This document shows positions 4,906 through 22,149 of a DNA stretch of 55,235 nucleotides, piece by piece. Numbering within the stretch: position 1 is the stretch's first letter; the number at the start of each line of letters is the position of its first letter. Source of the DNA: a virus. Below the pieces are notes generated by a model. That model ran no database searches and was not told the origin of the DNA. It saw only the letters and a program-made list of their open reading frames with translations. The stretch covers positions 1-55,235 of IMG/VR virus record IMGVR_UViG_3300015203_000003. One strand, given 5' to 3'. Both the position numbers and the translations under genes were made by a program.

Positions 4906-5652
4906 ATGGGAAAAGAAATAACGGTTAAGGAACTCGAATTGGCACGCATGCCGGAGCCATCTGTTGGCGCTCTTATGCAACAGGTTGTCAGCGCCGGGAT
5001 TACGCCTGACACGGTTTCGGTTATGAAAGACCTCATCGCCATGAAAAACGACTTGGAGGAGCGCGAGGCGAGGAAGGATTTTGCGCGGGCCTTCGTTCAG
5101 ATGCAAAAAGAGATGCCGAGCGTTAAGGCGATCAAAGCCGTCATGGACGGCGACAAGGTGCGCTACTATTTCGCGCCCTTCGAGCACATCAGGGAAGAGG
5201 CACGCCCGATACTTACAGCCAACGGGTTTGCCGTATCCTTCGATACGAAAGTGGAAGACTCCCGGCTAATTTCGTTCTGCACCCTCACTCACGAGGGAGG
5301 CCACTCGCAGACCAATCAGTTTGCCTGCCGGTACACGAAGCCTCCCGGAACGAGCGATGCGCAGGGCGATATGTCCACGAAGTCTTACGCGATGCGTGGG
5401 GCGTTCTGTGACGCCTGCGGCATCGTTATCGACAAGGATACGGATGGTGACGACGTGCGCGGGCTGGGCGGCAAGGTGACGCCACAGCAGGCCGAATCCC
5501 TCCGCAAGCGCGTCCGCGACACGGAATCGGACGAAGCCCGGTTTTTGAAGTACGCTGGGGCCGACGACTTTGAAGACATCGATGAAGCCCGATATTCTCT
5601 TCTCGACTCGCACCTATCCAAAAAGGAGGCCGAGAATGCCAAAGGTTTTTAA
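4906..5652 (+). CDS. ERF-family single-strand annealing protein
   Basis: KVRYYFAPFEHIREEARPILTANGFAVSF and STKSYAMRGAFCDACGIV resemble the ERF core motifs. The gene is followed by an exonuclease gene. Confidence 0.7.
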   Translation: MGKEITVKELELARMPEPSVGALMQQVVSAGITPDTVSVMKDLIAMKNDLEEREARKDFARAFVQMQKEMPSVKAIKAVMDGDKVRYYFAPFEHIREEARPILTANGFAVSFDTKVEDSRLISFCTLTHEGGHSQTNQFACRYTKPPGTSDAQGDMSTKSYAMRGAFCDACGIVIDKDTDGDDVRGLGGKVTPQQAESLRKRVRDTESDEARFLKYAGADDFEDIDEARYSLLDSHLSKKEAENAKGF

Positions 5653-6253
5653 CTTCGAGCAAGGGTCCGTTTCGTGGTTCGAGGCGCGGCTTGGGAAGCC
5701 AACCGCCAGTGAATTTCACCGAATCATGGACACGGGATTTAATTACCGAAAAGGCGAAATGCCCTACACGTTTCTTTGCGAAAAGGTCGCAGAGAAATGG
5801 CGCGGGGAACCGCTGCCAGGCTTCGCCGGATCGTGGGAAACCGATCAAGGCAAGATTCGTGAGGTGGCCGACGCTCGCCCGTGGTATGAGCTTGAATACG
5901 ATTGCGACGTACAACAAGTGGGGTTTATCGAGACAGACGATGGCCGGTGCGGATGCAGCCCAGACGGACTGATAGGAGACGAAGGCGGGATCGAAATCAA
6001 GTGCCCTGAACCCATCGCGCATACGAAGTACCTACTCTCTGGAGAACTGCCCTCCGCCTATATTCAACAGGTTCACGGGAGCCTGTTTGTGACGGGGCGC
6101 AAGTGGTGGAAATTCCTAAGCTATCGACGCGAGTTTCCTCCGCTACTAATTACCATCGAACGAGACGAGCAAATCATGGCAAAAATAGCGGAATCACTCA
6201 CCCGATTCTACGGATTTTTTGACGAGGCAATAAAACAACTGGAGGTACTATGA
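5636..6253 (+). CDS. YqaJ/lambda-Exo-like PD-(D/E)XK recombination exonuclease
   Basis: ATG 5636 follows an AAGGAGG Shine-Dalgarno sequence. The N-terminal FEQGSVSWFEARLGKPTASEFHRI is a YqaJ signature. The motif GIEIKCPE is also present. Confidence 0.75.
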   Translation: MPKVFNFEQGSVSWFEARLGKPTASEFHRIMDTGFNYRKGEMPYTFLCEKVAEKWRGEPLPGFAGSWETDQGKIREVADARPWYELEYDCDVQQVGFIETDDGRCGCSPDGLIGDEGGIEIKCPEPIAHTKYLLSGELPSAYIQQVHGSLFVTGRKWWKFLSYRREFPPLLITIERDEQIMAKIAESLTRFYGFFDEAIKQLEVL

Positions 6254-6435
6254 GCCTCGACGAAGCCCGAGAAACCCTGGAGTCGCGGCGGCGCCTGCAC
6301 CCGACGCCGAACCGGATCGAGTGCGCCTGGTGCCGGGCGGTGATGCGGGGCGGCTGCGAGCCGGTCAGCCACGGTATCTGCGACCGATGCAAGGCCGAGC
6401 AGCTTGGGCAGGTGCAGGCGAAGGGGGACGCATGA
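6250..6435 (+). CDS. Small Cys-rich (zinc-ribbon-like) protein
   Basis: Contains CAWC...CDRC. ATGA overlaps on both sides. Confidence 0.55.
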   Translation: MSLDEARETLESRRRLHPTPNRIECAWCRAVMRGGCEPVSHGICDRCKAEQLGQVQAKGDA

Positions 6436-6761
6436 GACTATTTAGACCAGCTATTACACTCAAGGCAAGCGGCATCAAATGTGACGCCGAGGGATGCGAC
6501 TACCTAAATGATACCGTTAGCTTTCACGACTATGGAAAGTGGTTGAATCGGCCATGCCCTAAATGCGGATCAAACCTTCTTACTCAAGCCGATTTGACCA
6601 CCTTAAATCGGATCATGAAATTTGTTAGGTTTGCGAATTTCATCCTGTTCCCGTGGGCTATATTGTCGTGGATTATTGGCTCTAGCCGCATTGGATTGAG
6701 AATCAAGATGAATGGGACCGGAAAAATCGAAACCGAAGATTTAGGAAAGGCACGGACATGA
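6432..6761 (+). CDS. Zinc-ribbon protein with C-terminal hydrophobic segment
   Basis: ATG 6432 overlaps the upstream stop. Contains CDAEGC...CPKCG and a TM-like FILFPWAILSWIIG segment. Confidence 0.55.
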   Translation: MRLFRPAITLKASGIKCDAEGCDYLNDTVSFHDYGKWLNRPCPKCGSNLLTQADLTTLNRIMKFVRFANFILFPWAILSWIIGSSRIGLRIKMNGTGKIETEDLGKART

Positions 6762-6994
6762 GTGACATACCTGCATTTCCTCAAGGCATAGCGGGGACTA
6801 CGGACGGCGGTACATACACTGGTTTCGAGAAGCACCCAGATTTTGGAGGCATGACTCTTCGGGACTACTTCGCGGCGAAGGCCATGGCTGCAATGCTCTG
6901 CCCGGAAGATGCCAATTCGTCGGATGGGGGTAGAATCTCCGCTACCGCCTACAGGTACGCCGACACAATGATGAAGGAGAGAGAATCAAAATGA
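6758..6994 (+). CDS. Hypothetical phage protein
   Basis: ATGA-coupled. The MTLRDYFAAKAMAAML motif is common in small phage proteins of unknown function. Confidence 0.55.
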   Translation: MSDIPAFPQGIAGTTDGGTYTGFEKHPDFGGMTLRDYFAAKAMAAMLCPEDANSSDGGRISATAYRYADTMMKERESK

Positions 6995-7275
6995 GAACCT
7001 GTGAAGAATGCGGCAAAGAAGAAAGCCGCTGCCACTGTAACCAGCCGCGATGGGACAGTGACCGCGCCGATGAACCCCACCCGATCCGCATCAGTCGCGA
7101 CGGCATGGGCGTCCGCGTCCAGCTACAGGGCGCCAGCACCTACGTCACGGTCGCCACGGCCCAGGAAGCGCACGACCTGTTGACCGACCACTGCCCGGAC
7201 GGTGAGACGGTGCGGGTGCAGTGGGACGTGCGGCCTTGGGATGCCGTGGCGGGAATCAGGAAAGCAATCAAATGA
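6991..7275 (+). CDS. Hypothetical Cys-containing protein
   Basis: ATGA-coupled on both sides. N-terminal CEECG...CHC. Confidence 0.5.
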   Translation: MRTCEECGKEESRCHCNQPRWDSDRADEPHPIRISRDGMGVRVQLQGASTYVTVATAQEAHDLLTDHCPDGETVRVQWDVRPWDAVAGIRKAIK

Positions 7276-8633
7276 GCGAACCCAAGATTGAACCGGGTGA
7301 AGAAAGTCGTTTCCACTCATCGGGAGACACGCGCCAAAAGCTCCCACCCGCACCCGTGACAACCGGAGGGAAGTGCCCGACGTGCGACGGTCGTGGCTTC
7401 GAAATAGGCGACGAAACGCTCTACCGCTATCCCTGCCCCGACTGCCACGGAACCGGCCAGAAAGCTCAACCAGAAAGTGAGGTGAAATCATGCAAGGTAA
7501 GTGCTCCTGCACAAATTATCTCGACGAACAGTGCGCCATCCATGGAACAGCAGCCATGCGCAAGTAACGCCGCGCCTACGTCCAACCCGGAAAGCGCGGC
7601 AATGACTCCCCTGGAGATTTCTGAGTTTTATGTTGGTTCCCATCACCCTAACGAACGAAGCAAGATTCCGCAGATCATACTGAATTACGAGGACTATATG
7701 ACAATCGTAAATGAGTTGCGTAAAGTGTCCCAGCAACAAGTATCCAGTGACGATGCGGCGAACCTTTCCAGCGAAACAATCCGAGGCCACAAGGTTATTG
7801 ACTCGTCGCCCGAGTTTATCGCCGAGGTAGAAGCCACACGCAAGACGCCTGAATACGCAAAGGAAATAGCGAACGTTTCCAGCGAGGACGAGTGCATCTG
7901 CGTGACACTGCCCTTAGGCAATCGACCCCGTTCTATCTTCTGCCCCAAACACGGGCCTGCCAGCGAGGACGCGGGGGAGGCGTGGATTGAGTGGAAGGTC
8001 AAAACTAACAATCCACATTCCATGCACCGGGAAATCTTCCTTGCAGGCCGTGCCTCCCAGCAACAGGCCATCGCAGCCCTGACGGCAGAGGTTGAGCGCT
8101 GGAAAGAAGATTCGATGCGTCAAGCGGCCACCATTAACCGTTTAGCGGCTGCGGCAGAAGACCGAAACGAAGTCGATAAAAACAGGGAAAAGATGCACGC
8201 GGAAGACCTTGCCAACCTGCGGCATGAACTTGACGACGAGCGCAGGATATCAAAAGCCACCGATGAGCTAGCAAGATCATTATCAGAAGGAGGTAAGATG
8301 CTTCGCCAGGAACTCGCCGCGAAAGAGGCGGCGTGTCACGCAATGAGGGCGGCACTGGAGGCCGTAGGCTTTTATTATCAGAACGCGGGTTTCCTTCACT
8401 CTAGGGAATGCCTGGGTGGAAGCCGGTGTGAATGCGGGGCATTCGAAGCTAGATATAAAATGGACGACATTGAACACACTATGTCCACCTCCGTATGGAA
8501 GGGCTGGCGGTCCCCGGAAGAGTGGGAGCGGAGAACGCGTGTGCTAAAGGACGTAATGGCTTCCCTTGAGTTGCAGGGTATTTTTAACGAATCATTAGCA
8601 GCAGCACGAAAAGAACTGGAGGACAACCAATGA
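7272..8633 (+). CDS. Hypothetical protein with DnaJ-type CxxCxGxG zinc fingers and a coiled coil
   Basis: ATG 7272 overlaps the upstream stop. CPTCDGRG and CPDCHGTG motifs are followed by a long heptad-like charged region. Confidence 0.6.
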   Translation: MSEPKIEPGEESRFHSSGDTRQKLPPAPVTTGGKCPTCDGRGFEIGDETLYRYPCPDCHGTGQKAQPESEVKSCKVSAPAQIISTNSAPSMEQQPCASNAAPTSNPESAAMTPLEISEFYVGSHHPNERSKIPQIILNYEDYMTIVNELRKVSQQQVSSDDAANLSSETIRGHKVIDSSPEFIAEVEATRKTPEYAKEIANVSSEDECICVTLPLGNRPRSIFCPKHGPASEDAGEAWIEWKVKTNNPHSMHREIFLAGRASQQQAIAALTAEVERWKEDSMRQAATINRLAAAAEDRNEVDKNREKMHAEDLANLRHELDDERRISKATDELARSLSEGGKMLRQELAAKEAACHAMRAALEAVGFYYQNAGFLHSRECLGGSRCECGAFEARYKMDDIEHTMSTSVWKGWRSPEEWERRTRVLKDVMASLELQGIFNESLAAARKELEDNQ

Positions 8634-8911
8634 GAATATGCCTATCAATTCTAAATGGAGACGGTATTTCCGTGTACATCGAAAACAAGAATGGCGACGA
8701 GCTTCGCGTTTCGGAGCGGTATCGCTGCGGAACGACGCCAAGACAGGTCGTAAGGTCGATAGAGAGTGCGGCCAAGCAACTTAGGGAGGTTGCGCTACGC
8801 CTTGAATTTCTTGCCCAGCAACCTAATCCATTTAATGCGACGACACAGACACAGGTGAACCGGATTCCCGTTTCTAAACTCACCGAGACCCGTTCGGAGG
8901 ACAACCAATGA
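8630..8911 (+). CDS. Hypothetical protein
   Basis: Preceded by the repeated GGAGGACAACCAATG junction. ATGA overlap. Confidence 0.55.
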   Translation: MRICLSILNGDGISVYIENKNGDELRVSERYRCGTTPRQVVRSIESAAKQLREVALRLEFLAQQPNPFNATTQTQVNRIPVSKLTETRSEDNQ

Positions 8912-9177
8912 GCGACAATACCAAAGTAATACATGCGAGGCGCTGCAAATCGTGTAGTAACCTAGTGACGACGGATGCGACGTGTCCGCTCTGTGATCTT
9001 CCAACTACAAAGCATCCTGACCAATCTATACTTATTGCCTATTGTATGGAATGCGCGCGAGGTCCATTCCCTGCCGGAACAATGCACCTTGTTACCTGGA
9101 ACGAAGACCCATGCAATCAGGACGAAGATGGCGATCTGTACATGATTTGCGAGAAGTGCCTTCGGAAAAACAAATAG
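8908..9177 (+). CDS. Cys-rich zinc-finger protein
   Basis: Four CxxC pairs (CKSC, CPLC, CMEC, CEKC). Preceded by the GGAGGACAACCAATG junction. Confidence 0.55.
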   Translation: MSDNTKVIHARRCKSCSNLVTTDATCPLCDLPTTKHPDQSILIAYCMECARGPFPAGTMHLVTWNEDPCNQDEDGDLYMICEKCLRKNK

Positions 9178-9191
9178 ATAAAGGACAACCA

Positions 9192-9434
9192 ATGAAACAG
9201 GAATTAGAATTTGAAGTCCGCGCAACGGAAGATGGGCCACCCTTAGCCGCCTTTCTATACATCGAATGGGCCTTTGTGTGGATGGATCAGTATTGCCGCA
9301 CCGGAGTTGTGGTGCATGAGAACATGAAGATGGCGAAACCAAAAATACAGGTGTCCCACCCTGATCCATCCTTCCCGTTTGACGAGCACGATTTGAATAA
9401 TCAATTAAGGAGGACAACCAATGAGCGAGATTAG
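9192..9434 (+). CDS. Hypothetical protein
   Basis: Internal ATG at 9192 is preceded by AAGGACAACCAATG. Confidence 0.5.
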   Translation: MKQELEFEVRATEDGPPLAAFLYIEWAFVWMDQYCRTGVVVHENMKMAKPKIQVSHPDPSFPFDEHDLNNQLRRTTNERD

Positions 9435-10035
9435 CGAAGCTGCAAAGTCCGCCGCCTCGGATGTGTGCGCAGATGGCCTTAATCTGGAGCAGCAGCGAGC
9501 GGTGCAACGGAGAATCCAATACGCCATTGACACCGAGAAAACCGCCCTTGAGCAAACCAACGCCCAGCTACGGCAGCAGTTGGAGGAGTCCGTTAAGTAT
9601 CATTCGGCTGAGTTTCAAGACCGCATTGGCTTACAGGATGAGGCAAAAATCCTTCGCCGACTTGGCGGCGAAGCCCAGCAGCGCATTGACTGGCTATCTG
9701 GTCAGCGCGAAATCGAAGTCCAGCAAAAGGAGGCCGCACTAAACGAAGCTGGGGAATGGTTGAAGAACAATGAGTTTCTTCGCAAGGAAAACCGGATACT
9801 CGCAAGTCAACGCGAACGAATGAAGGTCGAACGGGATGAAGCCCAGCAGCAGCGGGACGCGGCGGTTGCGGACTTGGACTGGATCGAGGAATCCTTGCGC
9901 AAGGGCACGGATGTTTTTTATGGCCCAAATACAAAGTGCTTTTATGTAGATTCAAGTTCTCCTCGGTCTCCAAATGGAGAAACGCTCCGCGCCGCCATCG
10001 CCGCCGCCCGTACCCAAACCAAGGAGGGGAAGTAA
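9421..10035 (+). CDS. Coiled-coil protein (Ea22-like layout)
   Basis: Preceded by GGAGGACAACCAATG. A long coiled coil is followed by the C-terminal motif DLDWIEE...TLRAAIAAAR. Confidence 0.55.
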   Translation: MSEISEAAKSAASDVCADGLNLEQQRAVQRRIQYAIDTEKTALEQTNAQLRQQLEESVKYHSAEFQDRIGLQDEAKILRRLGGEAQQRIDWLSGQREIEVQQKEAALNEAGEWLKNNEFLRKENRILASQRERMKVERDEAQQQRDAAVADLDWIEESLRKGTDVFYGPNTKCFYVDSSSPRSPNGETLRAAIAAARTQTKEGK

Positions 10036-10157
10036 TGAGCGAAGACGAGGCATACGAAAAACTACAGGAGTTTTTAGGACTGGCAGAAGAACTAGTGGCA
10101 TCGGGACGATACTCAGCCGAGGAGATTAAGGACGAACTAGAAACGAGACTGGACTAA
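10035..10157 (+). CDS. Small acidic hypothetical protein
   Basis: ATG 10035 overlaps the upstream TAA (TAATG). 40 aa. Confidence 0.35.
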   Translation: MSEDEAYEKLQEFLGLAEELVASGRYSAEEIKDELETRLD

Positions 10158-10161
10158 CCAA

Positions 10162-10761
10162 ATGATCAACCAAGAAAAAGAGATCGATGAGTGGGAATAC
10201 TTCGAGGAGACGATGCCGTCCAACGACCTAATGATCGTATTCCACACGGTTCGAAAGAAGGGCGGCGTGAGCCCTGCGGACAATATTGTGCGCTGTCACT
10301 CGGAGTCCGTAGCTCGACTAATTGCGCAGGCTCCTACCCTCCGCGCCGAAGTCGCCCGGGTACGAGAATCCCGGTTGCGCATAATCGACGAGCGCGAACA
10401 AGCGCTCAAAGAAGTCGCCCGGCTCACCGCAGCGCTTGAAGAAGCAACGCGCTGGCCTACAGTGGCCGTTTCCGACGCTGATAAAATCGCCCGACTCACC
10501 GCCGAGAGGGATGAGGCAAGAAAGCCTGGGGGTGGAACGCTGGGCATCAGTGCATTTGACCAAGGGGTCAAGTTCGCCGCCGATCAATATGAGACCCAGC
10601 TTGCCGAGCTTCGCAAGGACGGGGAGCGGTTGGATTGGCTCGCGTCCTGTAGCTACATCAAAATCGACGTTGACCGATACGGCAACGGACTTCGGATCGG
10701 AATTGATCGAGACGATGGTATTCGCGCAGCCCTGGACGCGGCACGGAAGGAGCACGCGTGA
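10162..10761 (+). CDS. Coiled-coil protein (Ea22-like layout), loosely related to 9421..10035
   Basis: The C-terminal LDWLASCSY...GIRAALDAARKE echoes the C-terminal motif of the upstream coiled-coil protein. Confidence 0.55.
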   Translation: MINQEKEIDEWEYFEETMPSNDLMIVFHTVRKKGGVSPADNIVRCHSESVARLIAQAPTLRAEVARVRESRLRIIDEREQALKEVARLTAALEEATRWPTVAVSDADKIARLTAERDEARKPGGGTLGISAFDQGVKFAADQYETQLAELRKDGERLDWLASCSYIKIDVDRYGNGLRIGIDRDDGIRAALDAARKEHA

Positions 10762-10964
10762 ATGAGTCTAACTTTCTACACATTCCCTTGGGTGCTGGAT
10801 GGTGCAAAATATCACTCGGTAATTCGGAGGAAGATTTCAACCTGATGTTGGACACGCTTCGGCTTTGGAAAAAAAGGATTGCGCCTCCCATATGCCTCTC
10901 AAGGAAACCGCGCAAAGGGGCTTCTATGAGATACTTTTCAGTGGCGCGGAAGGAGAAGCCATGA
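10758..10964 (+). CDS. Hypothetical protein
   Basis: GTG start overlaps the upstream stop, and the stop overlaps the next ATG. No motif. Confidence 0.35.
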   Translation: MNESNFLHIPLGAGWCKISLGNSEEDFNLMLDTLRLWKKRIAPPICLSRKPRKGASMRYFSVARKEKP

Positions 10965-11278
10965 CCCGCACCCCGTTACGTCGCAAGACGCCGATGCGGC
11001 GCGGAGGCAAGCTGGCGGCAGCAAGTCCAAAGCGGCGGCGGGACCTGATCGAGTATGCGAAGCTGCGGAAGACGTTTCTGGAGGTGCATACGCATTGCCA
11101 GTTTCCAAACTGTGAGAAGCGGGCAACCCAGGTCCACCATTCCAAGCGCCGGGGAAAACATCTCCTCGACGTTTGCAGCTTCCGAGCAGTTTGTTTCGAG
11201 TGCCATCGCTGGATTGAAACGCACGCGCGGCAGGCGGAAGCCATGGGGCTTCTGGTGCGTGAGAATGAGAAGCACTGA
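10961..11278 (+). CDS. HNH endonuclease
   Basis: ATG 10961 follows a GGAGAAG Shine-Dalgarno sequence. The pattern CQFPNC...ATQVHHSKRRG...CFECHRWIE is an HNH/Cys4 pattern. Confidence 0.6.
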   Translation: MTRTPLRRKTPMRRGGKLAAASPKRRRDLIEYAKLRKTFLEVHTHCQFPNCEKRATQVHHSKRRGKHLLDVCSFRAVCFECHRWIETHARQAEAMGLLVRENEKH

Positions 11279-11284
11279 CAAATT

Positions 11285-11485
11285 ATGAAAATAAAACAAT
11301 GGATTCCGGGGATTCACTTATCGTGGCTCCAAGTTAACTGGTGGAAGTATCTTCTTAAGAAACCATTATCTCTACGTGCTTTCTGGTGCCGAGCCTGCGG
11401 CCACCCAAGCGGCGTGGTGTTTTACAATACGGGTGGAGACGAACCGGACATGACCTGTACGAATTGCGGAGACGATTTAGGATGA
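11285..11485 (+). CDS. Small zinc-ribbon protein
   Basis: Contains CRACG...CTNCG. Confidence 0.5.
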   Translation: MKIKQWIPGIHLSWLQVNWWKYLLKKPLSLRAFWCRACGHPSGVVFYNTGGDEPDMTCTNCGDDLG

Positions 11486-11535
11486 ACACAACAACGCCCG
11501 TGCGGCTCGTGCGCTGGGCTACCTGAAATGACGAT

Positions 11536-12003
11536 ATGAAAACAAAATTCTCCATTCGGGCGCAGCATTATTGCGACCATTGCGGCAAGATGCGCCGGAC
11601 CATTGGGGGGATTATCAAACACGAGAATGGATGCTGTAAAAACCCATCCCGGATTTGTAATTATTGCAAGATGGCTGGCACTGAGCAAATGCCAATGAAT
11701 GATTTAATTGAGGCCCTGAAATACGGCGGGCTGCAACAGCTTCGAAAAGAAGCTACAAATTGCCCGATGTGCATTCTTTCTGCGCTGGTTCAAGCTGGGC
11801 GTGGAGGAACAGAAGGTAAACCGGAGGACTTGGAATTCGACTTCAAAAGAGAACGCGAACAATTTATGAGGGACATAAATGACGCCGACGCCGGAGGAGG
11901 TAGATGCAGGCCATTTCAACCGAACATAATGGCGCATTTTGAATTAGGACGGCGCGTGAAAGCAGAGCGCAAGGAATGGATGAAATCACGAGGGATAAAG
12001 TGA
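11536..12003 (+). CDS. Cys-rich hypothetical protein
   Basis: Contains CDHCG, CCKNPSRICNYC and CPMC motifs. Confidence 0.55.
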   Translation: MKTKFSIRAQHYCDHCGKMRRTIGGIIKHENGCCKNPSRICNYCKMAGTEQMPMNDLIEALKYGGLQQLRKEATNCPMCILSALVQAGRGGTEGKPEDLEFDFKREREQFMRDINDADAGGGRCRPFQPNIMAHFELGRRVKAERKEWMKSRGIK

Positions 12004-12006
12004 CCC

Positions 12007-12306
12007 ATGCCGCTCCCCCTGACACCCGAGCAGGCCGCAGTGGCCGCCGAACCCGAGGCGCTGGGCCGGACCAGGTACCGCGAGCTGGAGCCGGTCCTGG
12101 TGGGCCAGGTGCGCTGTGTGGCCGGTGTGTGGCAGATCGAACTGATCGTCATCCGCCAGAGCGTGGGCCGCAAGATCCTGAAGATCATCGAGGACGAGCG
12201 GCTGCAACTGGAGGCTCAGAACGAACAGCGGCGGCTGGCCGATCCGGAACTGGCGCCAGTGGTGGCGGCCGCGGCGAAACCTGAGTGGGATGGAGAACTG
12301 TTTTAG
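12007..12306 (+). CDS. Hypothetical protein
   Basis: 99-aa ORF, the last gene before a 283-nt non-coding gap. Confidence 0.5.
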   Translation: MPLPLTPEQAAVAAEPEALGRTRYRELEPVLVGQVRCVAGVWQIELIVIRQSVGRKILKIIEDERLQLEAQNEQRRLADPELAPVVAAAAKPEWDGELF

Positions 12307-12589
12307 GGCCCATAGGTTAAGTCATTTGAAATGAAGACTTTGAGATTGAAATCGGCAAAAAACAGGGCACTTGGGGACCGGCCGCCAAATACCGCAACAA
12401 AAAGCTTGCCCGGCCAGCCACGGCAGGGCTACATAGGCACCGTTCGCGTGTTGTGAGAATCGCGCGAATCGTCTACAACGACATGAAACCGACCTTCCTT
12501 CAACCCGCATCCTCCGGGATACCTAGCGTTATCGTTGGCGCAAAAGTTCTCGCTCCTGGGGTGGTGCGGGTTGAAAGAGGGGCCGGGGC

Positions 12590-13354
12590 ATGAAGCGGGG
12601 AACGCCACGGCATCCGAAGGTCGAGGAGCTTGGATTGACGCTCAAAATACCACGCTTTTCAGCCGTGGGGCTGCTGGAATTACTTTGGCATTTTACCGCC
12701 GAATTTTGCCGGCCGGGAGACATTGGCCGCTTCTCCGACGACTCAATTTCAAAGGCTTTGTCGTGGAATAAGGCGAGCGGAGAGCTTGTTTCGGCGCTCG
12801 TTTCGTGCGGGTGGCTGGATCAATGCGTCTGCCATCGACTCCGCGTCCATAATTGGCCTCATCATGCGGACCAGACGGTGGTGCGTGTGTTAACCAATCA
12901 GAATCAACGGTTTATATCATGCTATGATGATCCTAGCACCATAATAGCTGGCGGTTATGATGAAACTAACCTCCCCAAGGCCCAAGGCCCAAGGCCAATA
13001 CCCAAGGCCTCATCCCAAGGCCCAAGGCCGTCCGCTGGCGCGGATAGCGAGTCTTTGGCGAGGGCAAAAAAACTTTTTGGGAAAAGAGAATCGACCGCGC
13101 TCGACTCCGCCGAAGGCCGGGCATGGAAGACCGCCGCGCCAATCGTGGAGGCTACGAATAAGGAGGGCTGGGAATTGCTGGAATGGGCCTACTCGCAGAC
13201 CGATGGGGACGCCTCCCGGTTCCGCCGCCAAGGCTTCGCCACGCTTTTGAACAACTGGAACGGCGAGATCGAAAAGGCGCGCAACTGGCGGAACGGAAAC
13301 GGCACGAACGGCAAAGCGCAGCACGCCGCGCCTGGATCGGTGGACCAATGGTAG
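12590..13354 (+). CDS. Replication initiator / replisome-organiser-like protein
   Basis: AAGAGGGG Shine-Dalgarno sequence. The N-terminal part looks like a winged helix. The gene lies directly upstream of, and overlapping, a DnaC-like loader gene, and contains an internal DNA repeat array. Confidence 0.5.
   Translation: MKRGTPRHPKVEELGLTLKIPRFSAVGLLELLWHFTAEFCRPGDIGRFSDDSISKALSWNKASGELVSALVSCGWLDQCVCHRLRVHNWPHHADQTVVRVLTNQNQRFISCYDDPSTIIAGGYDETNLPKAQGPRPIPKASSQGPRPSAGADSESLARAKKLFGKRESTALDSAEGRAWKTAAPIVEATNKEGWELLEWAYSQTDGDASRFRRQGFATLLNNWNGEIEKARNWRNGNGTNGKAQHAAPGSVDQW
12974..13027. repeat. Six exact CCCAAGG heptamers (3 tandem + 1 + 2 tandem): iteron-like array, candidate origin
   Basis: Copies start at 12974, 12981, 12988, 13001, 13014 and 13021. 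A locally AT-richer stretch (about 12905-12972) lies just upstream. The array is inside the initiator-like gene. Confidence 0.45.
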
Positions 13355-18810: not shown

Positions 18811-18917
18811 AAACCCCGAGCCCCAGCACCACGCACTGCGCCCGCAACGAGCACCAGACGCTCTGCGGCCACGAGGTAGCGACTGGAACCCGGATCGTGG
18901 GTGGTGGGCTACTTTGA
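18807..18917 (+). pseudogene. 5' fragment of a small Zn-ribbon phage gene, truncated by transposon insertion
   Basis: ATG 18807 overlaps the methyltransferase stop (ATGA). The frame runs into the transposon inverted repeat and stops at 18915-18917. The remainder of the gene is at 22087..22149. Confidence 0.7.
18892..18899. repeat. Target-site duplication GGATCGTG, left copy
   Basis: Identical 8-mer at 22079..22086, directly outside the inverted repeats. Confidence 0.8.
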
Positions 18918-18919
18918 AA
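18900..18919. repeat. Terminal inverted repeat GGTGGTGGGCTACTTTGAAA
   Basis: Matches the reverse complement of 22059..22078 (GGTAGTGGGCTACTTTGAAA) at 19 of 20 positions. The GGT(G/A)nTG start is IS1-like. The transposase stop codon lies within it. Confidence 0.8.
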
Positions 18920-19751
18920 TTGTACCGGCACAGAGAATCCCGACCATCTCTTCAAGGCTCCAAACGTGCTGTGCGACACCGGCTTCCATCGCGGGGGTGA
19001 CGCGGAGGGTCTGATGGATGCGGCAAAAATTGTAATGCATGAAGTAAATCGCCAGCGCGTGCTCGTGGTTTTCCAGCTTCTTTGAAAAGGCGTTCGTCAA
19101 CCTCGTGAACCGGCGCATTCCCATCCTCATGCTGAGGTTCTGGCGTTCGGCAAAGCTCGTGGAGATGTGCTTGCGATCCGGCTTGCCGGTCATAGTGGTT
19201 TTCCTAGCCCCCATGCAGATAGCGGGGCTGTAACGCGTTTGTGGGCCGGTTGGCAGATTGCCGTAGAGTTTCACGAGCCGCCCGTAATCAATGTCATTCC
19301 CGAACACATCATCCACGGCGGAGATGTAGGCGTGGTGTCCGTCCGTTGTCAGTTGGACGCGATGGGCAAGACGCCCGGCTAGATCGTGCATGAAGTGGTA
19401 CGCGGAATCGGCATTGCGCGGGCCAACAAACCAGCAAGGGACAAGCTTCGTGTCCGCGTCGATTGCCGTCCAGGTCCAGGCATCACCCCATCCCATTCCT
19501 TTTTGCTCTGTGGTGGCGTTCTTCTCCTTCGCTCCCACAAACGCCCAAATTTCATCGGCTTGCAGGCGCTTGCATTTGAGGTCGCGAAAAACGCGATCCT
19601 GATAGGCGGAACAAGCCGCGCCCATCTCTACCAGGAGACGGGAAACAGTTTTCTTGGCAAACCCGGTCATGCGGCAGGTAGCGCGGAGGCTGTTTCCCTC
19701 GACCATGCACGCAACGATCTTGGCGCGTTCTTCGGTGCTCAACTTGTTCAT
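18909..19751 (-). CDS. IS1-family DDE transposase (single-ORF type)
   Basis: N-terminal HTH (EERAKIVACMVEGNSLRATCRMTGFAKKTVSRLL). WTWTAIDADTKL, QLTTDGHHAY and STSFAERQNLSMRMGMRRFTRLTNAFSKKLENH...RIHQTLRVTPAM match IS1-type transposases from memory. Confidence 0.75.
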   Translation of the reverse strand: MNKLSTEERAKIVACMVEGNSLRATCRMTGFAKKTVSRLLVEMGAACSAYQDRVFRDLKCKRLQADEIWAFVGAKEKNATTEQKGMGWGDAWTWTAIDADTKLVPCWFVGPRNADSAYHFMHDLAGRLAHRVQLTTDGHHAYISAVDDVFGNDIDYGRLVKLYGNLPTGPQTRYSPAICMGARKTTMTGKPDRKHISTSFAERQNLSMRMGMRRFTRLTNAFSKKLENHEHALAIYFMHYNFCRIHQTLRVTPAMEAGVAQHVWSLEEMVGILCAGTISK

Positions 19752-19760
19752 GGGTCTAAT

Positions 19761-19780
19761 ATGCTTAGGCGTCTAAGCAT
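19761..19780. promoter_or_regulatory. Near-perfect 20-bp palindrome ATGCTTAGGCGTCTAAGCAT between the transposase and Panacea genes
   Basis: 8-bp arms ATGCTTAG/CTAAGCAT around GCGT, within the 103-nt divergent intergenic region. Confidence 0.4.
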
Positions 19781-19854
19781 TGTCAACGGGATTTTAAAAT
19801 ATTTGCGTACTGGTACGGTTCTTGGTAAGCTCTACTGGAGAGACAACTGTTCAA

Positions 19855-20400
19855 ATGAACATTAAATTAACCGGATTTACCGATAAACTGGAGGAACTTG
19901 TCCTGTACATCATCGCGATGTCGGAACGAGACCCACGGTTTATGTGCACCAAATTGAACAAGCTGGTTTGGGCTGCCGATTTCGCGTGTTTCTGCGAAAC
20001 CGGCAGCACGATCACTGGCGCAAATTATCAGCGCCAGAAATTCGGACCCGTTCCCAAGGCTATGCCAATCATTCTGGGGCGACTTGAGCGGGAGGGGCGA
20101 ATTGAGATGCAGGAGGTGCAGATTGGAACGAAAGTTGGCATTCGGCCAGTCGCCAAGGCCGCGCCCGACATTTCAGCGTTCTCTCAGCGCCAATTGATGC
20201 TCGCCAGCAAGATGGTTGCAGACAACTTCGGCAAGACAGGAACAGAGTTGAGCGAGGAGAGTCATAAAAAATTGGCGTGGAAGGTTCTGGATAATGGCGA
20301 CGAAATTCCGTTTGCTTCGTGGTTCGTTACCGCTCGGAACCCCACCCCTGCCGAAAGAGCTATAGGGTTGGAACTGGAAGCCGCTCTGGAGCAGAACTAA
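19855..20400 (+). CDS. Panacea-domain (DUF4065, SocA/GepA-like) antitoxin-type protein
   Basis: ATG 19855 (the track start at 19822 is TTG). TKLNKLVWAADFACFCETGSTITGANYQRQKFGPVP fits the DUF4065 core as I remember it. Confidence 0.6.
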   Translation: MNIKLTGFTDKLEELVLYIIAMSERDPRFMCTKLNKLVWAADFACFCETGSTITGANYQRQKFGPVPKAMPIILGRLEREGRIEMQEVQIGTKVGIRPVAKAAPDISAFSQRQLMLASKMVADNFGKTGTELSEESHKKLAWKVLDNGDEIPFASWFVTARNPTPAERAIGLELEAALEQN

Positions 20401-21284
20401 ATATCCTCCATCGTAATCTCGCGGGACGCTTCAGGGACCGCAGGGAACTCAGTATGGGGTGCTTGATCGGTATCCTTGAACGCCGCCTTCGCGGCCTTGA
20501 CGGCTTTCTGGGCCCGCTCAAATTGTCGCTTTGAGAACTGCACGAAGTCAACCAAGGCATCAAAATCGTCTGGCGTAAGTTCTTGTCCGGTAAAGACAAG
20601 TGTCGCCTGATTTGCGCCGAGCGGGATGGTGTATTGAGCGAGCATCTTTTGGCCTTGCGGGGCTACGTGAGCGTGTGGCGTGTAATCTGACAATGGATCG
20701 ACGAGGATAAATGGCGGATTCTGCGTCGATTTTGGTTCATTGGCTGGAGGCGGTTGCTCCTGTTGCTGTTTTGGCGTTTCATCCCTGCCTTCATTTTGTA
20801 CCACAGGCGTGCTGCTGGAATCAAGTTTAGCGAAGGTTTTATTTGCCGTATAGGCTTTGGCAACCCGCTTTGCCCTGTCGAGATTGAACCCATTTTGCAC
20901 TAAGTGACTTACGAGAACGTCCTCAGAGCAGTCATTATAGCCATTATACAGGTCCTCAAAGACTTTTGGAGCCAGAGCAGCTTCTCGAATCGCAGTGAGT
21001 GATTGATCGGTACTGGTTGGGTGCAGTATCCGCAAGGAAAGCGAAGTGACCGTGAGCATGCCCTTGGCCCGGTCAATCAGTCCATATTGCGAGAACCCGG
21101 CCAGCAGCGTGAGCGAGCTGCCCGTCAGCCCTGAATACCCCATTGCCCTGCAAGCCACCTCCGGCTTCACAGGTGAGCGCCCTATTTGAGCGTGGAGCTT
21201 TTTGACCCTAGAAATCGCCTCCTCAAGTTCCACCACTGGAGCCCTGGGGCTTCTGTCTTGATTGGCTATATCGTCGTCATTCAT
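20397..21284 (-). CDS. Hypothetical 295-aa protein: winged-helix-like N-terminus, low-complexity linker, unknown C-terminal domain
   Basis: First ATG is at 21284 (the track start at 21401 is GTG). The stop codon overlaps the stop of the convergent Panacea gene. No family recognised. Confidence 0.55.
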   Translation of the reverse strand: MNDDDIANQDRSPRAPVVELEEAISRVKKLHAQIGRSPVKPEVACRAMGYSGLTGSSLTLLAGFSQYGLIDRAKGMLTVTSLSLRILHPTSTDQSLTAIREAALAPKVFEDLYNGYNDCSEDVLVSHLVQNGFNLDRAKRVAKAYTANKTFAKLDSSSTPVVQNEGRDETPKQQQEQPPPANEPKSTQNPPFILVDPLSDYTPHAHVAPQGQKMLAQYTIPLGANQATLVFTGQELTPDDFDALVDFVQFSKRQFERAQKAVKAAKAAFKDTDQAPHTEFPAVPEASREITMEDI

Positions 21285-21445
21285 AAAGCCAACCGTATAA
21301 CGGATTACACGATACCGCAAGCGGCGAATAGAATAAACCGTATCGTGTCCTGAAAATAATGCTTGTGCTCGCCGGAGCTTAGGGTGTATGCCATGTGGCA
21401 CGCTGAGAAATTGGCTCCAAAAAGTTCCGCTATAAACCAGAAATC

Positions 21446-21727
21446 ATGCCCGCCGCACCAAAACGCCCTATGATGAGGGATGTCCGCTCCGAGCTATCGG
21501 TGGACGCCGATCTTGAGCGTATTTATGGGAGTGCGCAGCTTGCGGACGAATGCATGAGGGGCCTAATGACGCTCCTGTCCAAAGATCCAGAATGCGGGAA
21601 GGAAAGTAGCAAAAAGGTCCGGCTGATAGATTCTCAGGGGTCTGGAATCTGGAAGGTCCTCACTTTTTGGTACACTTTCGATGACGAGTATGTGACGATC
21701 CTGAAGGTGGTGGCGAGCGATGGTTAG
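21446..21727 (+). CDS. ParE/RelE-superfamily-like small protein (toxin-like)
   Basis: 93 aa. The C-terminal WKVLTFWYTFDDEYVTILKVVASDG resembles the ParE/RelE C-terminal beta-strands. A TATAAA hexamer ends 9 nt upstream of the ATG. Confidence 0.35.
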   Translation: MPAAPKRPMMRDVRSELSVDADLERIYGSAQLADECMRGLMTLLSKDPECGKESSKKVRLIDSQGSGIWKVLTFWYTFDDEYVTILKVVASDG

Positions 21728-21739
21728 GATTAGGTGACT

Positions 21740-22003
21740 TCAGGATTTCCGCCACCGTTTAGCCGCTCCCTGCTGCGCGATTTCCTTCCGTCTCTCCGGA
21801 GTGAGGTTAGCTGCCCGCATTTTCCCGCCCTTGCTGCCGCCAAGCTTGCCTAGGATGCTGGCGGCCTGACTTCGGAGCCGCTGCTCTTCATCCGTGATCC
21901 TGGGCGTCTCAGGGAGTTTCGCGGGGGGCGAGCCGGTGATCTGCTGGCCGATCCGAAAGGCGGCTTGAACCTCATCCTCTCTCTTGCTTGGGCGTGTAGG
22001 CAT
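21740..22003 (-). CDS. Small basic protein with a KGGKxRAAxLTPERRxEIAxxxAxxRW tail
   Basis: 87-aa ORF with an ATG start, convergent with 21446..21727. The C-terminal motif recurs in uncharacterised prophage proteins as far as I recall. Confidence 0.45.
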   Translation of the reverse strand: MPTRPSKREDEVQAAFRIGQQITGSPPAKLPETPRITDEEQRLRSQAASILGKLGGSKGGKMRAANLTPERRKEIAQQGAAKRWRKS

Positions 22004-22058
22004 GCCTCACAATGCACCCCGCTGGACACCTCGGCAATCCGATTCTAAACTGTACCGG

Positions 22059-22078
22059 TTTCAAAGTAGCCCACTACC
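22059..22078. repeat. Terminal inverted repeat, right copy
   Basis: TTTCAAAGTAGCCCACTACC is the reverse complement of GGTAGTGGGCTACTTTGAAA. Confidence 0.8.
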
Positions 22079-22086
22079 GGATCGTG
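22079..22086. repeat. Target-site duplication GGATCGTG, right copy
   Basis: Identical to 18892..18899. Confidence 0.8.
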
Positions 22087-22149
22087 CAACAGGAGCCAAC
22101 GTGCCGCCACTGCGCGGAACTTCTGCGTAAGCGGCGCAAACCATTATGA
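22087..22149 (+). pseudogene. 3' fragment of the interrupted Zn-ribbon gene
   Basis: Reads QQEPTCRHCAELLRKRRKPL-stop, in frame with 18807..18899. Its TGA overlaps ATG 22146 of the next phage gene. Confidence 0.7.

Follow-up and report, generated by a model that had tools for sequence, protein, structure and literature searches.

We consider it likely that positions 18900–22078 of the DNA analysed here (the window: all 55,235 nucleotides (nt) of the IMG/VR virus record IMGVR_UViG_3300015203_000003) are an intact and probably autonomous insertion sequence (IS) of the IS1 family, inserted in a phage genome and belonging to a clade that always carries cargo genes (‘transporter IS’). Besides the gene for a 280-amino-acid (aa) transposase, the element has four further open reading frames (ORFs) on alternating strands, as listed in an initial annotation made from the sequence: those for a Panacea-domain protein (PanA), a 295-aa protein of no known family (p295), a protein with a predicted ParE/RelE toxin fold (p93) and an 87-aa basic protein (p87).

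Boundaries of the element and the interrupted phage gene

The 3179-base-pair (bp) element has 20-bp inverted repeats at both ends, which match at 19 of 20 positions and start with GGTGGTG at one end and GGTAGTG at the other. It is flanked by two copies of the 8-bp direct repeat GGATCGTG; the coordinates of all four repeats hold as initially reported (Table 1). With up to three mismatches allowed, the 20-mer end was found at these two sites only in the 55-kilobase (kb) window, for an expectation of 0.00 from shuffled sequences (n = 100), and the 17-nt core of the left repeat is common to at least 145 other loci. The direct repeat abuts both inverted repeats, and identity at 8 of 8 positions exactly there would arise by chance in about 1 case in 65,000. 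A 9-bp duplication, CGGATCGTG, could also be read at this element; we adopted the 8-bp reading because 55 of 55 related elements start with GGT and have 8-bp duplications.

Excision of 18900–22086 restores an in-frame phage ORF of 51 codons, zinc-ribbon-like, in which MKTPSPSTTHCARNEHQTLCGHEVATGTRIV is joined to QQEPTCRHCAELLRKRRKPL, with the ATGA gene overlaps on both sides kept. The junction of the uninterrupted site was taken as ...GGAACCCGGATCGTG joined to CAACAGGAGCC.... We observed no match to the exact 26-mer of this empty site in viral contigs, to the 51-aa product of the restored ORF when viral contigs were searched with it, or to a codon-degenerate 35-mer in metagenome contigs. The 80 viral loci that have the neighbouring methylase (at up to 83% identity) together with the helicase continue downstream with unrelated DNA and give no empty-site reference. 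As neither the empty site nor a second copy of the element was found, the insertion event is deduced from the duplication and the restored ORF only. The initial description of the element as ‘freshly inserted’ agrees with a duplication free of mismatches and with a target ORF undamaged in both its parts; it could not be confirmed by an empty site, which the same annotation had proposed to look for.

The ends of the window overlap by 88 bp, giving a circularly closed assembly of 55.1 kb, which encodes a large terminase, portal, major head protein, helicase and helicase loader. Nearly all long ORFs of the window are on the + strand; the genes of the element are on mixed strands. Because of the circular closure, this set of genes and the strand pattern, we characterized the window, judging by its sequence, as a complete circular genome of a tailed phage, in agreement with the initial placing of the insertion in a phage. 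The G+C content is 54% in the element and 57% in the phage. An independent assembly of run ERR4837134 (Logan) was 100% identical over 16.8 kb including both junctions, which weighs against the chimeric assembly considered at the outset. Two large early phage ORFs, considered for phage lifestyle, had no sequence relatives in the PDB.

The whole element had no match in the GenBank phage collection; plasmids matched its transposase part only. Inside the element there is one transposase gene, and no internal copies of the repeat were detected even with up to six mismatches. A composite transposon was ruled out, given the single transposase gene and the absence of two complete flanking IS copies.

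We also observed TGTACCGG just inside each terminal repeat (18921–18928 and 22051–22058), in direct rather than inverted orientation, with one further occurrence only on that strand of the window; it may be a candidate subterminal binding site or a coincidence.

Table 1. Coordinates of the element, its genes and the interrupted phage ORF in the window
Feature	Position	Strand	Remark
5′ piece of disrupted phage ORF, 31 codons	18807..18899	+	ATG overlaps the methyltransferase stop
Left copy of target-site duplication	18892..18899	.	GGATCGTG, same as 22079-22086
Left terminal inverted repeat	18900..18919	+	GGTGGTGGGCTACTTTGAAA
IS1-family DDE transposase (predicted), 280 aa, single ORF	18909..19751	-	Pfam, NCBIfam, motif alignment
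Promoter-like site TTGACA, 17 nt, CATATT	19758..19786	-	directly upstream of the transposase start
PanA, Panacea (DUF4065) protein, 181 aa	19855..20400	+	predicted antitoxin
p295, 295-aa protein of no known family	20397..21284	-	between the PanA and p93 genes
9-bp inverted repeat ACACGATAC / GTATCGTGT	21307..21348	.	divergent p295–p93 intergenic region
p93, predicted ParE/RelE-fold protein, 93 aa	21446..21727	+	predicted toxin
p87, 87-aa basic protein	21740..22003	-	conserved end-gene of the IS clade
Right terminal inverted repeat	22059..22078	-	reverse complement GGTAGTGGGCTACTTTGAAA
Right copy of target-site duplication	22079..22086	.	GGATCGTG
3′ piece of disrupted phage ORF, 20 codons and stop	22087..22149	+	stop overlaps the ATG of the next phage gene

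A distant IS1 transposase in a cargo-carrying clade

The transposase gene takes up 843 of the 3179 bp (26.5%), and its stop codon TAG (18909–18911) lies within the left repeat; ‘about a quarter of the element’ and ‘ends inside the repeat’ were thus accurate descriptions. The proposed affiliation with the IS1 family was upheld by a Pfam match above the cut-off (PF03400, DDE_Tnp_IS1; 29.9 bits, cut-off 24.1), by NCBIfam transpos_IS1 as the best match of the protein (E = 2.9e-14, residues 5–147), by the DDE motifs, by the GGT ends and by the 8-bp duplication. In alignment with InsB of Escherichia coli IS1A (the reference being a real E. coli copy with a frameshifted coding sequence) we saw DEIWAFVGAK paired with DEQWGYVGAK and TDGHHAY with TDGWPLY, along with the third motif, ERQNLSMRMGMRRFTRLTNAFSKK; since these three motifs align, the catalytic residues were placed at D66, D137 and E202. 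The N-terminal part has a helix-turn-helix (HTH). DNA relatives on plasmids of Mesorhizobium, Hoeflea and Acidiphilium are labeled ‘IS1 family transposase’ by PGAP. We characterized the 280-aa protein, from these sequence features, as a distant IS1-family DDE transposase. The two overlapping ORFs, insA and insB′, with a −1 frameshift were not observed, the transposase being one ORF; as ISfinder presumably recognises a single-ORF subgroup of IS1, this excludes a classical IS1 and not the IS1 family. The promoter-like site upstream of the gene is a consensus match, of a kind no more frequent than in shuffled background.

The exact 20-mer end was found in 25 IMG/VR contigs, and the 17-nt end core in at least 120 genome contigs, mostly metagenome-assembled genomes of Acidobacteriota/Terriglobia and also Verrucomicrobiota and others. 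Pairing of + and − copies of the end gave 36 elements with matching 8-bp duplications (126–3570 bp). A protein-based scan of metagenomes gave >570 transposase relatives, with 19 complete elements (2604–4250 bp, 8-bp duplications) among the 80 best loci, so that the repeat pairs with 8-bp duplications number 55 in total (126–4250 bp). The clade has three forms: miniature elements, transposase-less single-gene cassettes, and elements with a transposase and several genes. No bare IS of ∼1 kb was found among the transposase-bearing elements with both ends found, each of which has 1.7–3.4 kb of extra genes. The element is not an isolated case and belongs to a large cargo-carrying clade. A search of the literature (ISfinder not included) turned up neither IS1-family elements described as having passenger genes nor any mention of this repeat end.

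At least eight other duplication-flanked elements have the transposase first, then variable genes, then p87; loci L102, L127, L143 and L242 and several metagenome elements show this arrangement. In a cultivated bacterium, a 3370-bp element with the duplication CACCAGCG on a Mesorhizobium loti plasmid (CP050295) encodes a transposase, an HTH/M78-peptidase protein, a hypothetical protein and a ‘histone H1’, the last being the PGAP name of a p87 homolog.

Other loci of the clade carry HigB with an HTH/M78 protein, SDH-type ClpP-like proteases or a PEP-CTERM protein. In 17 further complete elements Pfam domains of XRE-type HTH (seven proteins), Gp49/HigB, YhaV, MqsA, Phd/YefM, Abi_2, NYN, a dCTP-deaminase-like protein and a SmaI-type nuclease were detected; PADLOC reported HEC-09 (E = 1e-84), PD-T4-5, AbiD, RmrA, PD-Lambda-2_B, capH/capP and type II restriction-modification proteins. 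None of the five proteins of the window element (0/5) was matched by PADLOC, the matches of the element proteins in PHROGs were to unannotated families only, and PanA, p93 and p295 were absent from the other clade loci surveyed for cargo. Two cargo families recur: a 240–290-aa protein with winged-helix-like segments and a lysine-rich linker (L102, L007, L099, L131, L068), and the SDH-type ClpP-like serine protease, which is often accompanied by a 90-aa protein encoded on the opposite strand (L127, L035, L112, L076, L048, L032). Neither of the two is related to p295.

Cassettes in viral contigs carry a C5 DNA methylase and PAPS-reductase-domain proteins. In five of them (L015 1210–1914, L005 9945–10519, L017 7531–8434, L018 7791–8684 and L021 1224–2192) one gene fits tightly between the repeats, with its ATG at repeat position 21 (GGTAGTGGGCTACTTTGAAAATG...); the genes, coding for a 179-aa protein, two PAPS-reductase-domain proteins and a C5 DNA methylase, are unrelated. 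The cassettes with the 179-aa protein, in L015 and L005, are 95.5% identical over 555 bp and lie in opposite orientation; the contig flanks are unrelated, with similarity ending at the repeat ends. Because this cassette is shared between unrelated flanks precisely up to the repeat ends, transposase-less cassettes are likely to move.

Nine copies of the repeat end occur within 8 kb (5396–13098) of the viral contig L003 (IMGVR_UViG_3300047576_000022), including transposase-less elements with duplications at 9512–10092 (581 bp, CGAATTTG) and 12257–13098 (842 bp, GTCGCAGG); members of the repeat-end family have inserted in this phage genome several times. The duplications in viral contigs (10 elements, the one at 18892–18899 of the window included) tend to (C/G)(G/A)A(T/A)TT..., as in CGAATTTG, CAATTTTG, GAATTTTT, GGATTCTG and GGATCGTG; the 34 target sites in cellular and metagenome contigs show little pattern. 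The sample is small.

Proteins encoded in the element

PanA matches the Pfam family PF13274 along the full domain (E = 2.2e-11, profile positions 1–113 of 113), as expected for the Panacea/DUF4065-like protein that had been proposed. The ParE/RelE-like character proposed for p93, which is likely to start at 21470 and to have 85 aa, was confirmed at the level of the modelled fold. In the AlphaFold2 model (pLDDT 94) two N-terminal helices pack on an antiparallel sheet, and the top Foldseek matches were ParE2 (5cw7), other ParE proteins, RelE and YafQ (TM 0.65–0.71, probability 1.00). The protein was an orphan in a word-based protein search; 15 distant relatives of 85–90 aa were found, two of which match ParE_toxin, at E ∼0.06 only, and p93 keeps every residue invariant in the family alignment.

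In three bacterial contigs (L157, L158 and L159) a PanA homolog (59–73% identity to that of the window) is followed, with an overlap of 14–17 nt, by a p93 homolog (36–49%). In the window the two genes are co-directional and ∼1 kb apart, with the opposite-strand p295 gene between them. We predict, from homology and the modelled fold, that PanA and p93 are one type II toxin–antitoxin pair of the PanAT type, in which p93 would be toxic and PanA would neutralise it. The gene combination had not been recognised initially as a described system; the Panacea/ParE-like combination is a described one, split in this element by a 295-aa gene.

A decayed copy of the element was observed in L159 (3612–4677): a transposase remnant (residues 11–33) lies upstream and a p87 remnant (residues 62–83) downstream of intact PanA and p93 homologs, in the order of the window element minus p295. 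Recognisable terminal repeats and p295 are absent from it. The search for the same four-gene cassette elsewhere, suggested with the initial annotation, gave this decayed copy without p295 and no second copy with the window cargo. As a separate observation, seven separate stretches of a 1180-aa protein (P0066) match p93 residues 42–79; this protein may consist of repeats of a strand motif like that of ParE, or the matches may be a compositional artefact.

The p295 protein has 64 homologs and no Pfam match. Its AlphaFold2 model (pLDDT 83) begins with a winged helix-turn-helix and a helical domain, followed by a disordered linker and, at the C terminus, a beta-hairpin with a long helix. The only fold matches from Foldseek, run against PDB and BFVD, were weak ones of the winged-helix (MarR/RovA) type, and a profile search of the PDB found nothing; we regard p295, on the basis of the model, as a winged-helix protein. 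Profile–profile comparison with the recurrent 240–290-aa cargo family showed no relation.

The initial annotation listed p295 as an unknown. Five of six examined contexts of p295 homologs are in, or beside the end of, IS1-type elements of a sister lineage, with ends GGTAGTGTCCTAATTTG and a transposase 44% identical to that of the window. Four of these five (L148, L149, L246 and L248) are complete sister elements with a p295 homolog and 8-bp duplications; the fifth is a group of phage contigs (L151–L156). The window p295 and the copy in L148 are 82% identical in protein, and the DNA is 79% identical over 20478–21365. The gene probably came by recombination between IS lineages, landing between PanA and p93. 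Nested insertion was considered as well; no internal repeat remnants were found in the element.

The 9-bp inverted repeat ACACGATAC / GTATCGTGT, partly kept upstream of the 82%-identical L148 homolog, is a possible operator. A terminator-like G+C-rich hairpin with a T-run precedes each p295 homolog in L148, L149, L151 and L246, and ATACGGTT stands directly before the start codon in L148 and L149; upstream of the window p295 the ATACGGTT part is kept and the hairpin is not. In L151–L156 the homolog (P0014) and an 82-aa membrane-type ORF are on the strand opposite to the phage genes, in an insert that adjoins a single sister-lineage repeat and whose left boundary was not found; a tRNA-3′-end-like sequence lies upstream, and an Acb2/Tad1-hairpin gene is nearby.

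The smallest protein, p87, has the motif GG-x-GGK-x-RA-x-LTPE-x-R-x-IA-x-AA-x-RW. A hidden Markov model (HMM) of its relatives detected the gene in 16 further loci, where the homologs mostly start ∼30–80 bp from the outer end of the repeat and read inward, and p87 remnants persist in miniature derivatives of 324 and 431 bp. Given this position near the repeats and the remnants in miniatures, we characterized p87, from sequence comparison, as a conserved end-gene of the clade and not as cargo; thus the ‘four-gene cargo’ initially described is right in that the element carries extra genes and wrong in counting the 87-aa protein among them. No curated family in Pfam or NCBIfam matched p87, and PHROGs matches were to unannotated families only. 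PDB hits to alphaRep designs were rejected as composition artefacts, having no significant aligned stretch. The protein is probably a DNA-binding accessory or regulatory factor.

Proposed mode of movement, alternative readings and relation to known elements

The following steps are proposed from the anatomy of the element and knowledge of the IS1 family. The 280-aa transposase would bind the 20-bp terminal inverted repeats and insert the element at a staggered cut of 8 bp in the target; the insertion would have duplicated GGATCGTG and split the 51-codon phage ORF. The element would have moved from a host replicon into the phage and brought the PanA/ParE-type pair with it; from the distribution of the family, the only guide here, the probable host is an acidobacterium or a soil bacterium of a similar kind. 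In its new location the PanA/p93 pair could favour retention of the carrier replicon or act in phage–host conflict.

Several observations weigh against this account. The empty site was not found in related phages, nor was a second copy of the exact element. The Pfam match of the transposase spans the third catalytic motif only, and the NCBIfam score, 53.5 bits, is under the equivalog cut-off of 100, because of which the protein is taken as a distant IS1 member and not an IS1 equivalog. For p93 there is no Pfam match and no significant sequence-profile match to ParE/RelE. Co-regulation of PanA and p93 may be lost, since the two genes are not adjacent in the window.

In an unlikely alternative, PanA serves mainly phage counter-defence, as an orphan-like antitoxin against toxin-based abortive infection of the host, with the insertion kept because it helps the phage. 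A gene on the other strand stands between PanA and p93, PanA has an upstream region to itself, its closest relatives (84% identity; L160 and L161) are not followed by a p93 homolog, and genes of the DNA methylase and PAPS-reductase types, typical anti-restriction functions, occur in transposase-less viral cassettes that have the ends of the window element. Yet p93 is intact and keeps all family-invariant residues, the overlapping PanA–p93 operon is conserved in three bacterial contexts, and the bacterial contig L159 has the same pair within a decayed copy of the element. That the element is an old, inactive passenger, inherited in the phage lineage and no longer mobile, we regard as quite improbable: the 8-bp duplication is perfect, neither half of the target ORF is damaged or out of frame, the two ATGA overlaps persist, and five of five ORFs of the element are full length in comparison with their homologs. 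In favour of such a passenger one could mention the single position at which the two repeats differ, the closeness of G+C contents, the absence of the empty site from viral and metagenome collections, and the absence of a second copy with the window cargo from the protein collection; however, the phages related by helicase and methylase differ downstream, so that failure to find the empty site is a matter of poor sampling.

An assembly chimera, or two independent miniature elements flanking phage genes by chance, is very improbable indeed. Repeats shared with contigs of the same community could mislead an assembler, and miniature derivatives of the repeat family are abundant; still, each junction reads the same in two assemblies, the duplication lies outside the unit as a whole, excision of which restores the ORF, the same gene order is seen in the other duplication-flanked elements, and the internal genes are on mixed strands while phage genes are not. 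The reading we retain is that of an intact, probably autonomous, cargo-carrying IS1-family element.

Among known elements, IS1 of E. coli and its family are similar to the window element in the motifs DE-W--VGAK, TDG---Y and ER-N---R----R--R----FSK, in the HTH ahead of the catalytic domain, in the GGTR-TG ends and in a duplication of 8–9 bp. The window transposase differs in being one 280-aa ORF, where InsA and InsB′ of IS1 are joined by a frameshift, in lacking the N-terminal (InsA) zinc finger, and in a stretch from the second D to the E that is ∼40 residues longer. Because of its four additional genes the element is ∼4 times as long as IS1 (768 bp). Long IS1 members may already be catalogued: in ISfinder the ISMhu11 subgroup presumably includes lengths up to ∼4.6 kb. 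Phage P1 carries a plain 768-bp IS1 with no passenger genes; the window is similar in having an IS1-family element resident in a phage genome that is presumably packaged and different in the passengers.

With transporter IS and mobile insertion cassettes (MIC231 of Bacillus cereus) the element shares a transposase and unrelated genes within one repeat pair, and transposase-less derivatives that keep the repeats and a passenger gene and would be movable in trans. The duplication flanks the 3179-bp unit, and internal genes vary among elements with the same ends and transposase, as is characteristic of transporter IS, a concept named in PMC3129680. The window clade differs from other transporter IS in belonging to the IS1 family, in its conserved small basic end-gene, in passengers that are mostly toxin–antitoxin or anti-phage defence genes, and in its many copies in viral contigs.

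Tn3 elements have a ∼1000-aa transposase and a resolvase, 38-bp repeats, 5-bp duplications and replicative transposition, in all of which they differ from the window element. Similar is the presence of a type II pair inside a transposon, thought to stabilise the element or its carrier replicon; Tn3-family transposons carry toxin–antitoxin pairs (Lima-Mendez et al. 2020, as cited in PMC8832971). For Panacea antitoxins, ParE is among the listed toxin partners, and transposase genes are frequently found close to the pairs (Kurata et al. 2022, PMC8832971). As in PanAT, a Panacea/DUF4065 antitoxin gene is followed by a small overlapping toxin gene in the relatives of the window element; in the window itself the genes are ∼1 kb apart around an opposite-strand gene, and the predicted toxin is recognisable as ParE/RelE by fold only.

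Passenger-carrying IS, toxin–antitoxin pairs on transposons and PanAT pairs are already known kinds. An IS1 clade that combines a fixed end-gene with an obligatory slot for cargo, in which toxin–antitoxin and defence genes abound, and that resides frequently in phages appears to be new; the clade may have been catalogued before in ISfinder. It is possible, and we propose it tentatively, that the window element belongs to an undescribed IS1-derived gene shuttle between soil bacteria and phages. One form of it would be autonomous, with a transposase, the H1-like end-gene and a slot holding toxin–antitoxin or defence genes (HEC-09, PD-T4-5, AbiD, RmrA, PD-Lambda-2, restriction-modification, HigBA, PanA-ParE); the other would consist of transposase-less single-gene cassettes, with the same ends and with the ATG of the gene at repeat position 21, placing DNA-modification (counter-defence) genes in phages. 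If so, this would be a transposon-based exchange of cassettes from which both parties to the arms race profit.

Phage genomes are regarded as poor in insertion sequences, and textbooks present IS1 as the example of a minimal element. Many viral contigs nevertheless hold copies of the present clade, transposase-less cassettes included, between clean target duplications. Two protein families are repeatedly tied to IS1-type transposases, that of the H1-like end protein and that of the winged-helix protein of 295 aa, and both are candidates for new accessory factors of transposition. If the elements are active, they would offer defence and counter-defence genes a simple, host-range-independent route among chromosomes, plasmids and phages, one that would span soil Acidobacteriota, Verrucomicrobiota and Alphaproteobacteria.

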